From: a virus
Lineage: Duplodnaviria > Heunggongvirae > Uroviricota > Caudoviricetes
Virus record (IMG/VR): IMGVR_UViG_2627853869_000001
DNA length: 5,977 bases
Reading direction: 5' to 3' (one strand)
Shown here: positions 1,738-5,977 of the stretch, in pieces
Layout: every line of letters begins with the position of its first letter
Position numbering within the stretch: the stretch's first letter is position 1
The notes under the pieces: model-generated
Database searches by the model: none
What the model saw: the letters and a program-made list of their open reading frames with translations, nothing else
Told to the model about the DNA's origin: nothing
Made by a program: the position numbers and the translations under genes

Positions 1738-1929
1738 TTAAAGACCTGCCGGGATTTCGTTATTATCCTGGTGAATAACTTTATCGACCGGGTAACAGTT
1801 ACCGGGAATTTTCTGTTCGGTTGCTGCAGTCACACACTCCTGCATTGTCCTGTGAACACTGACTGCAATATCAACTGGCTCTCCGGAAACAAGAAAAACT
1901 GTCAGAACAAGTGCAAATGCTGTATTCAT
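1738..1929 (-). CDS. ydfD: YdfD-like small membrane/lysis protein (63 aa) with N-terminal hydrophobic segment
   Basis: ORF MNTAFALVLTVFLVSGEPVDIAVSVHRTMQECVTAATEQKIPGNCYPVDKVIHQDNNEIPAGL. AAAGG lies 9 nt upstream of the ATG. The start codon overlaps the dicB stop as ATGA (translational coupling). Length and position match ydfD of the Qin dicB operon. Confidence 0.75.
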   Translation of the reverse strand: MNTAFALVLTVFLVSGEPVDIAVSVHRTMQECVTAATEQKIPGNCYPVDKVIHQDNNEIPAGL

Positions 1930-2114
1930 TGCCAGCATCCTTTTTGTATCGGACGTAAACGGGCCAGCATTGAAAGAATGCATATTTTATTTAATAGCTC
2001 CCGTTCGTGTTTTCTCTTGTTAATGGCATCTTCAGTAAATACAGGGTTACTGATATTGACACCAATTTCAAAACAACCTTCAGACGTATTAACGTTTGGT
2101 AATAACGTTTCCAT
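1926..2114 (-). CDS. dicB: DicB cell-division inhibitor (62 aa; MinC-interacting small protein)
   Basis: ORF METLLPNVNTSEGCFEIGVNISNPVFTEDAINKRKHERELLNKICILSMLARLRPIQKGCWQ. GAGGA Shine-Dalgarno lies 7 nt upstream of ATG at 2114. Sequence recognised as DicB; it sits immediately downstream of DicF as in Qin. Confidence 0.85.
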   Translation of the reverse strand: METLLPNVNTSEGCFEIGVNISNPVFTEDAINKRKHERELLNKICILSMLARLRPIQKGCWQ

Positions 2115-2283
2115 TATCGCGTCCTCAACAATGAATTTTGTGATGCGGTGCCTGGTGCCTCCAGGTGACGTTAACCAGTTAACAATTAACGCCGGATACA
2201 GAGAATCCACCCATAACACTGTTTTTGGTTTTAACTGTTCCGCGTGCGCTCAGCCGCATTCACCACATCACAAAATTCACTTT

Positions 2284-2326
2284 AAAAAGGGCGGCAGAGC
2301 AGTCACGGAGTAAAACTGATACCGCC
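2284..2326 (-). terminator. Intrinsic terminator hairpin of DicF (GGCGG…CCGCC stem followed by TTTTT)
   Basis: On the minus strand the GGCGG…CCGCC stem (+ coordinates 2290-2326) is followed immediately by a five-T run (+ coordinates 2284-2288). Confidence 0.55.
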
Positions 2327-2341
2327 AAACGTCACCAGAAA
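2284..2341 (-). ncRNA. dicF: DicF small regulatory RNA (ftsZ-targeting sRNA of dicB operon)
   Basis: Minus-strand sequence TTTCTGGTGACGTTTGGCGGTATCAGTTTTACTCCGTGACTGCTCTGCCGCCCTTTTT matches the DicF sRNA as recalled. It has a single-stranded 5' seed and a 3' GC hairpin followed by a T-run. Exact 5' and 3' ends are approximate. Confidence 0.75.
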
Positions 2342-2366
2342 ATTGATAACAGAGGGCGTTGCAGCG

Positions 2367-2403
2367 GGGTTGTCACTTAAGCGTATGGTCAACCTGACAA
2401 CCC
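2367..2403 (-). other. Perfect 9-bp inverted repeat (GGGTTGTCA-N19-TGACAACCC) forming a stem-loop in the untranslated operon RNA just 5' of DicF; candidate RNase processing structure
   Basis: Arms at 2367-2375 and 2395-2403 are exact reverse complements. The element lies about 25 nt upstream of the DicF 5' end on the transcribed strand. Confidence 0.4.
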
Positions 2404-2682
2404 GGTGTCCTCAACGGTGGAAGGAATAACCCCGCCATACTTACCGCCGCGCCATTTCGCGGATTGCCACAACCGGAAGCGCACGGTCGACGAAAATTTA
2501 ACGACAGGCTATCTATGAACCAGCTACCTCGCCGTGCGCTTTCGCGTTATGGTCTGACTTTTCAGGGAAATATCCTTTCAGTAAACTGTCAGTGCCGGAT
2601 GCTCACCCGTGTCCGGCGCACGCACTCCACCTCACCCGTGGAGAACTCCTTAATTACCAACCTTAGCTTCGTTGGTTAGCTA

Positions 2683-2901
2683 TTAACGCGGGTATGTAAT
2701 CATTCTGGCAATGCTTAATGCCGCTGCTTTTTCCAGATTAGTGATATCCTGCTCCAGAGCGGACAGATTTTCAGCCTGCTTAGCCCTGGCTTCATTGGCC
2801 CATTTCAGATCCTGCGCTGCATTAATTTTCTGGTGCATCCACTCATAAAGTTCATCATCGGTATAGTCTGGCGCGATGATGACGGGTTCTCGTTTCTGCA
2901 T
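2683..2901 (-). CDS. ydfC: YdfC-like small protein (72 aa), function unknown
   Basis: ORF MQKREPVIIAPDYTDDELYEWMHQKINAAQDLKWANEARAKQAENLSALEQDITNLEKAAALSIARMITYPR. GAGGA lies 6 nt upstream of the ATG. Length and order match ydfC of the dicB operon. Confidence 0.7.
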   Translation of the reverse strand: MQKREPVIIAPDYTDDELYEWMHQKINAAQDLKWANEARAKQAENLSALEQDITNLEKAAALSIARMITYPR

Positions 2902-2930
2902 ACTGATTCCTCGCGGTGCTGCTTCGCTTA

Positions 2931-3059
2931 TCAGCCGTTAGATTTTGCCGAGCTGGAAAGCGCCTGTTTAAACTCACTGAAGCTGAGAGCTTCTTCGCCT
3001 TCGGCAAGGCCTTCGAAGTATTCTTCGTAAGCCTTTTCCATGATTGTGTCGAAATCCAT
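2931..3059 (-). CDS. ydfB: YdfB-like small acidic protein (42 aa), function unknown
   Basis: ORF MDFDTIMEKAYEEYFEGLAEGEEALSFSEFKQALSSSAKSNG, below the size cutoff of the supplied ORF track. AGGTGAG lies upstream and the start follows the ydfA stop by 1 nt (TGA-T-ATG). Net charge is strongly negative. Confidence 0.65.
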   Translation of the reverse strand: MDFDTIMEKAYEEYFEGLAEGEEALSFSEFKQALSSSAKSNG

Positions 3060-3060
3060 A

Positions 3061-3216
3061 TCACTCACCTGAGTTTCTTTCCAGCCAGCGACGGGCACCA
3101 TTTTCGGTTTTAAACGTTTTGCTTTTGGTATACGTCATTGCGGTGAACGTGCCGTCCTGGTTTGGAAACACGCCGTACACCAGAGATTCGTTGTTGCCAA
3201 GATCGATAGTATCCAT
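3061..3216 (-). CDS. ydfA: YdfA-like small protein (51 aa), first gene of the leftward operon
   Basis: ORF MDTIDLGNNESLVYGVFPNQDGTFTAMTYTKSKTFKTENGARRWLERNSGE. GAGG lies 5 nt upstream of ATG at 3216. The longer track ORF (start 3372) would run into the promoter/operator region, so the short form is preferred. Confidence 0.7.
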   Translation of the reverse strand: MDTIDLGNNESLVYGVFPNQDGTFTAMTYTKSKTFKTENGARRWLERNSGE

Positions 3217-3331
3217 GCTGACCTCATTTCCCCTTAACGCCGGGGTAGCGGAACTGTTTGCGGAGAACACCGTGCGGTGTGTTGATGGAGGTAATTTAGT
3301 TTTCTCATTATTTTTCGTCAAGGTTTTTTGA

Positions 3332-3344
3332 TGAGAAAACTCAA
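3332..3344. promoter_or_regulatory. Operator-like motif TGAGAAAACTCAA (left operator, O_L analogue) in the leftward operon control region
   Basis: This 13-mer is identical to the one at 3868-3880. It is a near-palindrome (TTGAG-N4-CTCAA type) sitting between the repressor stop and ydfA. Candidate sigma70 elements on the minus strand flank it: -35 TTGACG at 3316-3321 with -10 TAAATT at 3293-3298, or a weaker pair at 3377-3382 and 3355-3360. Confidence 0.5.
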
Positions 3345-3408
3345 GTGCTGGCGCAAGATAAAGCCAATACATTGAAATGTAAGGCTTTAAAATTTTGTGA
3401 AGGGATGA

Positions 3409-3816
3409 TTATTGATGCTTGTTGCGTTTGCGAGCCTCTAATAGCTCGGTGAACAGGCGATTAAAATTCTCAACGCGGGCGCGGAGTTCGCTGAGTTGTG
3501 CTTGTTGCTCTGATTTAGGAAGTGCGCGATACAAACGCAGCATCTCTAACTCATCTTCCGATAAGTCTAGGGTACTATCGAGTGAAACAGGGGGAGCTGG
3601 TGTTTTGTCCTCGTCGCCAAACAGTATCCAGGTTGGTGAACATTGCAATACCTCGGCGAGGCGATGCAAATTTTGCCCGCGCGGGGCTGTATGGTCACTT
3701 TCCCATAATGAAATTGATGAGCCAGATACGCCAGCAGCTTTGCTTAAACCGTTTTGACTTAAGCCTACCTGCTTACGTCTTTCTCTAATGCGTTGACCTA
3801 AAGTTTTCTCGTTCAT
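3409..3816 (-). CDS. dicA: DicA-like HTH (XRE/CI-type) prophage repressor, 135 aa
   Basis: ORF MNEKTLGQRIRERRKQVGLSQNGLSKAAGVSGSSISLWESDHTAPRGQNLHRLAEVLQCSPTWILFGDEDK…ENFNRLFTELLEARKRNKHQ, with an N-terminal helix-turn-helix and divergent orientation to a cro-like gene. An in-frame upstream ATG at 3867 would add 17 aa, but the shorter start fits DicA length. No Shine-Dalgarno precedes either start, so the mRNA may be leaderless. Confidence 0.75.
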   Translation of the reverse strand: MNEKTLGQRIRERRKQVGLSQNGLSKAAGVSGSSISLWESDHTAPRGQNLHRLAEVLQCSPTWILFGDEDKTPAPPVSLDSTLDLSEDELEMLRLYRALPKSEQQAQLSELRARVENFNRLFTELLEARKRNKHQ

Positions 3817-3837
3817 ATTTAGATATCTTAATAATCC

Positions 3838-3867
3838 TTGACTTGAGATTCCTTGAGTGATTAGCAT
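3838..3867 (+). promoter_or_regulatory. Candidate rightward promoter (P_R analogue) for the cro-like gene: -35 TTGACT, 18-bp spacer, -10 TAGCAT
   Basis: TTGACT at 3838-3843 and TAGCAT at 3862-3867 sit upstream of the GGAGG RBS (3885-3889) and ATG at 3894. The -10 overlaps the operator motif. Confidence 0.45.
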
Positions 3868-4121: not shown

Positions 4122-4626
4122 ACAGGCTCGTGAGGCTCTGGATGCCTGGATATGTCGACCAGGAATGACACAGGAGCAGGCGACGATATTAATCACTGAA
4201 GCATTCTGGGCTTTGAAAGAGCGCCCGAACATCGATGTTCAGCGTGTCACAGATGAAGGTGGCGCGGTTGATCAGCGAGCGCTTGGCGTTAATCGAGTGA
4301 AGATATTCGAACGCTGGAAGGCTATCGACACCAGGGATAAGCGTGAAAAGTTCACGGCGCTAGTGCCTGCAATTATGGAGGCTATCCGGATTAATGATTT
4401 CAGGTTGTATCGTGAAATTAGTGACGGAAAAAGCATCACGTACATGATCGCCGGGTTAAACAAAGAATATGGCGATGTGGTGGAGTCCGGACTGCTTTTT
4501 GCTGATCCTGCCGTAGTGGATCGTGAAACTGACGAACTTATAGAAAAAGCAATTGCTTTCAAACTTGCGTATCGACAGCAATACCAACAAAAAGCTGGAT
4601 GGAATTATGAGCCTTCTTTTTGCTGA
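4105..4626 (+). CDS. YdaT-family protein (173 aa) in the position of lambda CII; putative regulator
   Basis: ORF MKITPEQAREALDAWICRPGMTQEQATILITEAFWALKERPNIDVQRV…. Its start overlaps the cro-like gene by 17 nt. The gene order repressor / cro-like / ydaT-like matches Rac-type racR-ydaS-ydaT modules. Confidence 0.55.
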   Translation: MKITPEQAREALDAWICRPGMTQEQATILITEAFWALKERPNIDVQRVTDEGGAVDQRALGVNRVKIFERWKAIDTRDKREKFTALVPAIMEAIRINDFRLYREISDGKSITYMIAGLNKEYGDVVESGLLFADPAVVDRETDELIEKAIAFKLAYRQQYQQKAGWNYEPSFC

Positions 4627-5384
4627 ACGCCCACTGGTTATAAACACACAGCTTGCGATGAAGATTGGCTTAAATGAAGCCATTGTGTTGCAGCAGTTGC
4701 ATTACTGGTTGAGAGATACCAATTCCGGCATGGAATGTGATGGTGTTCGCTGGATTTACAACACAACGGAACAATGGCTGGAACAGTTCCCATTCTGGTC
4801 AGAGTCAACGTTAAAGCGCGCGTTTGCAAGTCTGAAAACGCTGGGGCTCTTGCGTTGTGAAAAGCTCAATAAATCAAAGCGCGATATGACCAATTTCTAC
4901 ACGATTAACTATGGGAGCGAGCTTTTAGATGATGGCAAATTGAGCGAATCCATCGGTTCAAAATGCGCCGCTCCATCAGGTCAAAATGACACGATGGAAG
5001 AGGTCAAAATGAAACGCTCCATTGGTTCAAAACGACCCAATGTCATCGGGTCAAAATGGCCCGATGATCCTACAGAGAATACAACAGAGATTACTACAGA
5101 GAATAAAAACACTTTTCGTCCGGAAGCTTCGCAACCGGACCCGCAGACGGCTGAACAGGATTTTTTAATCCGGCACCCTGGCGCAGTTGTGTTTAGTGCG
5201 AAAAAACGCCAGTGGGGTAGCCAGGAGGATCTGGCGTGTGCGCAGTGGATATGGGGGCGGATCGTGGGTCTCTACGAACAGGCCGCCAGTGATGATGGCG
5301 AGATCATGCGACCAAAAGAGCCTAACTGGACTGTCTGGGCCAATGATGTGCGCACAATGCGGATGCTGGATGGCAGAAGCCACA
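4607..5384 (+). pseudogene. Lambda O-like replication initiator gene with internal iterons, 3'-truncated by IS insertion at 5385
   Basis: ORF from ATG 4607: MSLLFAERPLVINTQLAMKIGLNEAIVLQQLHYWLRDTNSGMECDGVRWIYNTTEQWLEQFPFWSESTLKRAFASLKTLGLLRCEK…. It overlaps the ydaT-like stop by 20 nt and contains the iteron array. Beyond 5384 the frame runs into the IS terminal repeat, so the 330-aa track ORF is a chimera. Confidence 0.6.
4951..5066. repeat. Five tandem iteron-like direct repeats (~23-bp period, core GGT(T)CAAAATG with dyad-symmetric ends CATCGG…CCGATG); putative prophage replication origin
   Basis: TCAAAA(T/C)G cores start at 4958, 4981, 5004, 5027 and 5051. Units 4 and 5 are internally palindromic (CATTGG…CCAATG; CATCGGG…CCCGATG). 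The array is followed at 5067-5110 by a moderately AT-rich (about 68%), purine-rich stretch with three (T/A)ACAGAGA(A/T)T repeats. Confidence 0.6.
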
Positions 5385-5424
5385 TGAACCGCTCCGGGTT
5401 TCCTGGAGAGTGTTTTATCTGTGA
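5385..5424. repeat. Right terminal inverted repeat of the IS3-family element
   Basis: The IS terminus sits immediately 3' of the OrfB stop (5427-5429). The exact inner boundary of the repeat is uncertain because the other end is outside the window. Confidence 0.5.
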
Positions 5425-5426
5425 AC

Positions 5427-5977
<551 letters not shown>

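Follow-up and report, generated by a model that had tools for sequence, protein, structure and literature searches.

Covariation points to a conserved four-way-junction RNA domain in the leader of the prophage sRNA DicF

Few bacterial sRNAs have been known for longer than DicF, whose operon encodes toxic inhibitors of cell division. The handling of the DicF precursor has so far been reduced to two cuts, one made by RNase III and one by RNase E. What, then, is contained in the 340 nt of RNA that separate DicF from the gene upstream? We considered this question for a 5,977-nt window (the whole stretch of DNA that was analysed), which is the immunity region of a Qin-type lambdoid prophage. Its minus strand carries, in order, dicA, a ydfA-like gene, a ydfB-like gene, ydfC, DicF, dicB, ydfD and an exonuclease gene. 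On sequence grounds, the 340 nt, which are read from the minus strand, represent the ydfC 3' UTR and the leader of DicF in a dicBF operon of the Qin type: the segment is flanked by ydfC and dicF, shares their strand and lies downstream of dicA-ydfA-ydfB. The 631 nt from ydfC to DicF are 98.1% identical to a K-12-derived chromosome in which ydfC and dicB are annotated, and 98-100% identical in thousands of complete E. coli genomes, K-12 derivatives included. Nothing is annotated between ydfC and dicB in K-12.

The original prediction held that no credible ORF lies on the transcribed strand between positions 2342 and 2682, and we agree. Within this segment, a 31-aa GTG ORF (2389-2484) is the only one on the minus strand to reach 30 aa, and we regard it as non-coding because close relatives differ by 1-nt indels inside it (alignment columns 153-156). 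The plus strand has ORFs of only 37 and 71 aa. A protein-coding gene on either strand was rejected: the ORFs are short, close relatives differ by 1-3-nt indels, and substitutions keep base pairs. A scan of 1900-3500 placed no promoter or terminator on either strand within 2342-2682, consistent with the published lack of an internal promoter. A permissive Rfam 15 scan of the window (E ≤ 1) returned DicF and a sub-threshold STnc100 match outside the segment, and nothing else; an ARAGORN search for tRNA and tmRNA genes returned none.

The segment had also been described as highly structured, which holds to a limited degree when it is folded as a single sequence: the MFE is -124.1 kcal/mol, and the z-score against shuffles (-2.33) lends modest thermodynamic support. 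Three hairpins had been singled out, and all are present exactly as described: a 9-bp inverted repeat with a 19-nt loop (2367-2375/2395-2403) and two 6-bp hairpins (2594-2599/2612-2617 and 2625-2630/2638-2643). The number of perfect hairpins of at least 6 bp is unremarkable, as dinucleotide shuffles give 1.47 ± 1.45 against the four seen here (p ∼ 0.08); the 9-bp hairpin is unusual by the same comparison (p ∼ 0.02). A longer inverted repeat, of 13 nt and 92% complementary (2474-2486/2532-2544), had been missed. From these and the homologue comparisons below, we propose that the leader would be a composite of four pieces, namely a mosaic junction, a long stem (P0), a four-way-junction domain and a 16-nt linker (Table 1).

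Table 1. Features of the DicF leader and flanking genes, numbered by window position except in the last row; helices are given as their two paired strands
Feature	Position	Strand	Basis
dicA	3409-3867	-	
ydfC ORF	2683-2901	-	
Mosaic junction, with three short 6-bp hairpins (2656-2676, 2625-2643, 2594-2617)	2563-2682	-	homology breakpoints
P0, long imperfect stem-loop, putative RNase III substrate	2467-2552	-	MFE fold and inverted repeat I1
P0 5' arm	2527-2552	-	
P0 hypervariable tip	2493-2526	-	
P0 3' arm	2467-2492	-	
Putative RNase III cut, 5' end of the 190-nt precursor	∼2475-2480	-	precursor length of 190 nt, measured from the DicF 3' end (2289)
Four-way-junction RNA domain, ∼116 nt	2358-2473	-	covariation and covariance model
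P1	2466-2473 / 2358-2365	-	
P2	2458-2462 / 2447-2451	-	
P3	2443-2446 / 2403-2406	-	
P4	2430-2434 / 2415-2420	-	
P5 (9-bp hairpin of the original prediction)	2395-2402 / 2368-2375	-	
Probable pseudoknot (tentative assignment), GUAUGG with CCAUAC in the P5 loop	2435-2440 / 2383-2388	-	inverted repeat I5
AU-rich single-stranded linker GCCCUCUGUUAUCAAU, 16 nt	2342-2357	-	unpaired in the consensus structure; ends at the RNase E-dependent DicF 5' end
DicF sRNA, seed and terminator hairpin	2289-2341	-	Rfam RF00039 match at 2289-2340, 76.7 bits, E = 3.4e-16
Covaried long stem in Salmonella (L131)	∼260 nt upstream of the DicF-like hairpin		

Covariation across homologous prophages, named in the original prediction as a check, separates the hairpins, in that the 9-bp one covaries while the two 6-bp ones show no compensatory changes. 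Among 78 Qin-type sequences, RNAalifold found no compensatory pairs anywhere, because these copies are too similar (93% mean identity). Further copies were collected by way of an e14-like partial match, a search of phage genomes and then a motif scan that excluded Qin variants and added 120 loci, which gave an alignment of 36 non-redundant copies (<97% identity) with a mean column identity of 71%. (Several matches in the scan of genome contigs were set aside as chance hits in unrelated MAGs.) In these 36 copies, 97.3% of the cells belonging to P1, P2, P3, P5 and the pseudoknot are paired. Both sides have changed at 12 of the 31 pairs, compared to 3.3 ± 1.3 in shuffles, none of which reached 12 in 500 trials, and to 1-4 pairs in slid controls, where the partners were moved by 1-3 columns. 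Compensatory changes are found at six of the eight pairs of P5. As the length of P4 varies, this helix was checked per sequence instead of by column; it forms in 37 of 37 representatives, as at least eight different stems. The pseudoknot is assigned tentatively: 99.1% of its cells are paired, with one compensatory event (GCAUGG/CCAUGC, in phage P1) and two wobble-compatible variants. Collectively, the covariation identifies the ∼116-nt domain as a conserved structured RNA.

With a covariance model built on 35 copies (R1), the window reaches 142.3 bits (E = 3.7e-35; 2356-2475, minus strand), and a copy outside the training set reaches 80 bits. Loops of the domain are near-invariant and more conserved than its helices. 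Single-sequence folding of the 190-nt RNA did not reproduce P1-P4, and this fold was left out of the evidence. The idea that the segment holds a second unannotated RNA has thus stood in part: the 9-bp hairpin is one helix of the covarying domain, and a regulatory role or a separate RNA species is putative. A CU-rich sequence (UCCUU/CCUCC) is usual in the P4 loops, and GAGGAC is often found in the strand directly 3' of the helix (2407-2414); variants with a CCAUUG loop have AAAAUG in this strand. Seen by eye, this hints at a second pseudoknot, between the P4 loop (2415-2434, minus strand) and GAGGA.

The domain is found in 4417 of 5426 complete E. coli genomes (81%), with a median of two and a maximum of eight copies per genome, and 506 copies reside on plasmids. 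It is never annotated in these E. coli genomes, and Rfam 15 has no family for it. Relatives of the inner ∼120 nt, at 77-90% identity, occur in lambdoid phages of the e14, 2H10, cdtI and Stx2c types and in P1/P7, with a further relative in a phage deposited as an Actinobacillus phage; the domain thereby spans lambdoid prophages of several immunity types. Hypothetical CDSs are called antisense to the domain or DicF at three loci (L141 1206-1412, L142 1245-1439 and L265 3100-3255). These calls are probably spurious, given the RNA covariation and the fact that the three differ in position and length.

One relative has been noted before. In the phage P1 record (NC_005856), a misc_feature in the leader of the ban operon, shortly after a repressor-controlled promoter, is termed the 'dicF-like region' and annotated as a sequence similarity only; it corresponds by homology to the 3' half of the domain together with a terminator hairpin. 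The P1 copy, at 77% identity, differs in having no DicF seed and in preceding tRNA genes, and several of the compensatory changes in the domain come from it. A literature search for 'DicF-like' elements, or for DicF in P1, returned nothing relevant. Neither PMC10448788 nor the other DicF papers found mention a folded domain or its covariation, its occurrence outside Qin or the stem that holds the RNase III site, and the folded domain appears to be undescribed so far.

Processing of the leader has been worked out in K-12, where RNase III makes the 5' end of the 190-nt DicF RNA and RNase E makes the 53-nt DicF (PMC10448788). Both steps were first shown by Faubladier in 1990, as cited in PMC10448788, the 2023 study in which Ragunathan and colleagues confirmed them. 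The 190-nt species is gone in an rnc mutant, while in an rne-ts strain the 53-nt species is gone and the 190-nt species builds up; primer extension located the 5' end of the latter, and an internal promoter was not found (PMC10448788). Dependence of the DicF 5' end on RNase E is reported in both PMC10448788 and PMC5069750. The K-12 Qin precursor, also termed the ydfC 3' UTR, is the same locus at 98% identity with the same RNase III/RNase E scheme, so we transfer the processing to the window by sequence identity. The suggestion that the segment carries determinants of DicF maturation was thus correct in kind, and already known, whereas the hairpins named for this role are not the RNase III site. 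The DicF 5' end falls at 2340/2341 by the Rfam match. Counting back by species length, which is a K-12 measurement and leaves the position uncertain by a few nt, the RNase III cut would lie in the 3' arm of P0 and in none of the three listed hairpins.

RNase III requires about two helical turns, and helices of 6-9 bp are too short for it. P0 is predicted by MFE folding to consist of ∼23 bp with three small bulges, and the cut would thus be surrounded by ∼20 bp or more of largely paired RNA. The 13-bp core of P0 persists in the 78 Qin-type sequences, where the changes to it are of the wobble type only. Covariation links the two arms across prophage families, with a mean duplex energy of -18.8 kcal/mol for cognate arms and -13.9 kcal/mol for non-cognate ones, and the cognate arm ranks 1-3 of 12 among candidate partners. 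The 5' flank of the domain and the upstream arm form P0 in nearly all families. Moreover, P0 always accompanies DicF; 97 unique sequences from upstream of DicF, taken from viral contigs, are all homologous to the window over 2287-2562, which is the minimal shared module. In Salmonella (L131; S. enterica CP191473), a covaried P0 is followed directly by a DicF-like hairpin and a gene start, with the domain absent. This covarying stem, too, appears to be undescribed so far.

RNase III stems are familiar from the lambda N leader and T7 early mRNAs, where cleavage separates functional RNA segments. In general terms, P0 resembles these in being an imperfect helix of roughly two turns in an early-operon transcript. 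It differs in that it abuts a conserved folded domain and that its 3' arm overlaps helix P1, and this overlap suggests refolding that would depend on cleavage. We also note that the sequence AGCGCACG (2243-2250, minus strand), ∼40 nt 3' of DicF, is complementary to CGUGCGCU in the P0 3' arm (2479-2486, minus strand), with duplex energies of -16 to -19 kcal/mol in all Qin-like types. Outside the Qin-like types, this long-range pairing has no covariation support. AGCGCACG could be an alternative partner of the P0 arm, or could be tied to the reported RNase III cut that gives a 72-nt DicF.

Upstream of P0, the picture is one of mosaicism. Beyond position 2562, homology to the window breaks at 2562/2570, 2622, 2640, 2662, 2781 or 2901, and past the breakpoint other prophages have different genes, often the start of a small ORF on the opposite strand (L003 1208-1486, L004 1242-1442, L002 1749-2186 and L265 2663-2863 are instances). 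Many of the DicF prophages without ydfC show a small opposite-strand ORF that begins, with an SD and ATG, exactly at the breakpoint upstream of the leader; its promoter would have to be in or beyond the leader, and we found none that was convincing. The two ydfC-proximal hairpins of the original prediction show no compensatory changes, the pairing of one of them (H1) is broken in 13 of 42 variants, and they are absent in 14-26 of 68 unique DicF-upstream variants. Because homology in other prophages breaks before reaching them, both are dispensable for DicF loci. Comparisons based on covariation, chance expectation and homologues gave no evidence for a functional role of 2563-2682 in DicF biogenesis. 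The loops of the hairpins at 2594-2617 and 2625-2643 (minus strand) share the 10-mer CACGGGUGAG, which lacks covariation and is altered to CACGGAUAAG in other classes.

What follows the domain is also exchangeable. A GC-rich hairpin with a U-run lies ∼20-100 nt 3' of the domain in 35 of 37 representatives, the L192 and L213 clusters being those without a nearby terminator hairpin. At least eight types of seed plus hairpin follow the domain, DicF being one of them, and the copies in P1/P7 and e14-type prophages are essentially without a seed. Seed cassettes were seen at loci L231, L232, L233, L125, L139, L169, L204, L149 and L153/L190; most share a GGCGG/CCGCC stem base, and in L153 and L190 an SD and start codon lie within the hairpin loop. 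By sequence comparison, the stem, the domain and the terminator cassette are separable modules, and the set has the look of a family of prophage sRNAs akin to DicF, in which seeds have been exchanged on a common upstream scaffold. Such a modular family of cassettes appears to be undescribed so far. The domain is neither required for sRNA production nor restricted to it, given the Salmonella locus, which lacks the domain, and the L192 and L213 clusters, which lack the terminator.

Given this arrangement, what might the domain do? The reading we prefer, with a probability of roughly 0.4, is that it is a cis-acting module for maturation or stability of the sRNA precursor. RNase III would cut P0, at the position reckoned above, to make the 5' end of the 190-nt precursor, and the domain would form the body of that precursor, its 5' two-thirds. 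Two partners are available to GUUGUGG (2467-2473). In the uncut transcript, it would pair with the upstream CAUAAC at the base of P0, a pairing that is seen in the MFE fold of the window, in an e14-type locus and in Salmonella. Removal of the P0 5' arm by RNase III would then free GUUGUGG for the downstream GCUGCAAC, closing helix P1. The closed domain would provide a compact, nuclease-resistant 5' body that stabilises the precursor, with only the AU-rich linker staying open to RNase E, which would yield the 53-nt DicF. The domain would in this way set the rate at which the toxic sRNA is released, and many prophages, as well as P1, would reuse the stem-domain-(seed)-terminator cassette with other seeds. 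Of the two known cuts, one falls on either side of the domain.

DicF can be compared in this respect to CpxQ, SroC and SdhX, which are RNase E-processed, 3' UTR-derived Hfq sRNAs (review PMC9438474). Like them, it is cut out of the 3' region of an mRNA by RNase E and has an intrinsic terminator at its end. Unlike the DicF precursor, theirs have no reported conserved multi-helix domain and RNase III stem upstream of the sRNA.

The conservation of loops over helices fits a partner-binding RNA more than a passive protective fold. It is a real possibility that the domain represents a new class of phage structured RNA with its own function, being either a protein-free modifier of RNA polymerase (similar to put or EAR, but unrelated) or a stable RNA of ∼137 nt that is excised and binds to a factor of the host. 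If so, the seed-swapped DicF-type sRNAs would be passengers in the same cassette.

The first of these two forms, in which the domain modifies the following terminator in cis as a put/EAR-like antiterminator or as a termination enhancer or insulator, would have it decide read-through into toxic early genes (dicB, kil and the ban operon of P1). The settings of the domain suit such a role. It sits in repressor-controlled early operons, lying ∼45 nt after the C1-controlled Pban promoter in P1/P7 and, in prophages of the e14 type, within the leader that follows a PL-like promoter, and the terminator-like hairpin present in 35 of 37 representatives would need to be read through for downstream genes to be expressed. 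This arrangement, a structured element upstream of an intrinsic-terminator-like hairpin, is also that of riboswitches and attenuators. The viable phage mEp460 has a repressor, small ORFs, the domain, DicF, dicB and an exonuclease gene in this order, with no N gene annotated in that operon. K-12 makes both a terminated 1,146-nt and a read-through 1,608-nt transcript, and highly conserved loops are what binding of a macromolecule would lead one to expect.

The put RNAs offer the obvious comparison. They suppress downstream terminators in cis by binding the zinc-binding domain of the RNA polymerase β' subunit. In HK022, put is ∼70 nt long, forms two stem-loops and is present in copies after both PL and PR (PMC9378689). 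Like put and the Bacillus EAR element, the domain is a structured nascent RNA found upstream of terminators in early operons of N-less phages, making antitermination a candidate role by analogy. It differs from put in its size (∼116 nt), its fold (five helices, with a four-way junction and pseudoknot) and its copy number. Each of 258 loci had one copy per contig and never two, with no second copy in the rightward operon, so the put-type arrangement of one copy per early operon was rejected. R1 also found no match at E ≤ 10 in HK022 23000-31000, a region expected from gene order to contain putL and putR, which are unannotated in that record. On all four counts, then, the domain does not belong to the put family. 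A riboswitch-style switch was likewise rejected, as the complementarity of terminator arms to the domain is not cognate-specific (-11.8 versus -11.8 and -15.4 versus -14.7 kcal/mol for cognate versus non-cognate pairings). Furthermore, Salmonella has the terminator and then a gene with the domain absent, and the Qin-type domain lies ∼800 nt into the transcript, behind three genes. We consider control of the terminator unlikely on balance.

Excision of a stable RNA seems similarly doubtful. Here, cuts by RNase III at ∼2478 and by RNase E at 2342/2341 would liberate a ∼137-nt RNA with a function in trans, which might bind or titrate a host protein or base pair through its CU-rich P4 loop. Both known cleavages bracket the domain exactly, the compact junction, pseudoknot and near-invariant loops are reminiscent of protein-binding RNAs, and the CU-rich sequence recurs in most P4 loops. 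Seedless copies in e14- and P1-type loci, and terminator-less copies in L192 and L213, are also in line with this reading. Against this, no species of such a size has been reported, albeit from published Northern blots that used DicF probes only, and there is neither an Rfam match nor a detectable tRNA or tmRNA gene. The linkage to a hairpin in 35 of 37 representatives further suggests that the functional unit includes the downstream hairpin.

Two other readings are disfavoured. That the hairpins at 2367-2403, 2594-2617 and 2625-2643 are themselves the RNase III/RNase E determinants is highly improbable: all three exist and the 9-bp one is conserved and covarying, but the 5' end of the 190-nt RNA (∼2478) falls in another, longer stem, such short helices generally do not serve RNase III, and the 6-bp pair is at chance level, non-covarying, sometimes disrupted and missing from many DicF loci. 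We give equally little credence to the notion that nothing beyond the cleavage sites is functional, with the sequence kept by recent ancestry or hitch-hiking with DicF or harbouring a hidden gene, for which one might cite the absence of compensatory changes among the 93% identical Qin-type copies and the hypothetical CDSs placed antisense to the domain in some phage records; at 71% mean column identity the helices stay paired through double substitutions, the domain is retained while its flanks and downstream cassette are swapped, and no ORF crosses it on either strand of the window, with 1-nt indels in relatives.

On the precursor-module reading, a defined RNA element would bear on when prophages release a toxic sRNA. 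Two-thirds of the 190-nt precursor is a covariation-supported fold, and this fold is carried by ∼81% of complete E. coli genomes. The domain also bears on how N-less early operons pass their first terminator, and on whether a further stable RNA is made. The seed-plus-terminator cassettes, of at least eight types, are relevant to how phage sRNAs acquire targets.

Two observations concern other parts of the window. The sub-threshold STnc100 match (38.7 bits, with a gathering score of 47) covers 2082-2291 on the minus strand and spans the DicF-dicB spacer; sequence of this spacer is also found 3' of most of the differing DicF-like terminator types in other prophages. At the far end, a 172-aa minus-strand ORF (5427-5945) was judged by eye to be similar to IS3-family transposases. 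A long ORF on the plus strand (4553-5545), which we read as a replication gene, extends into it with its 3' end, and this overlap suggests an IS insertion that truncated the replication gene.
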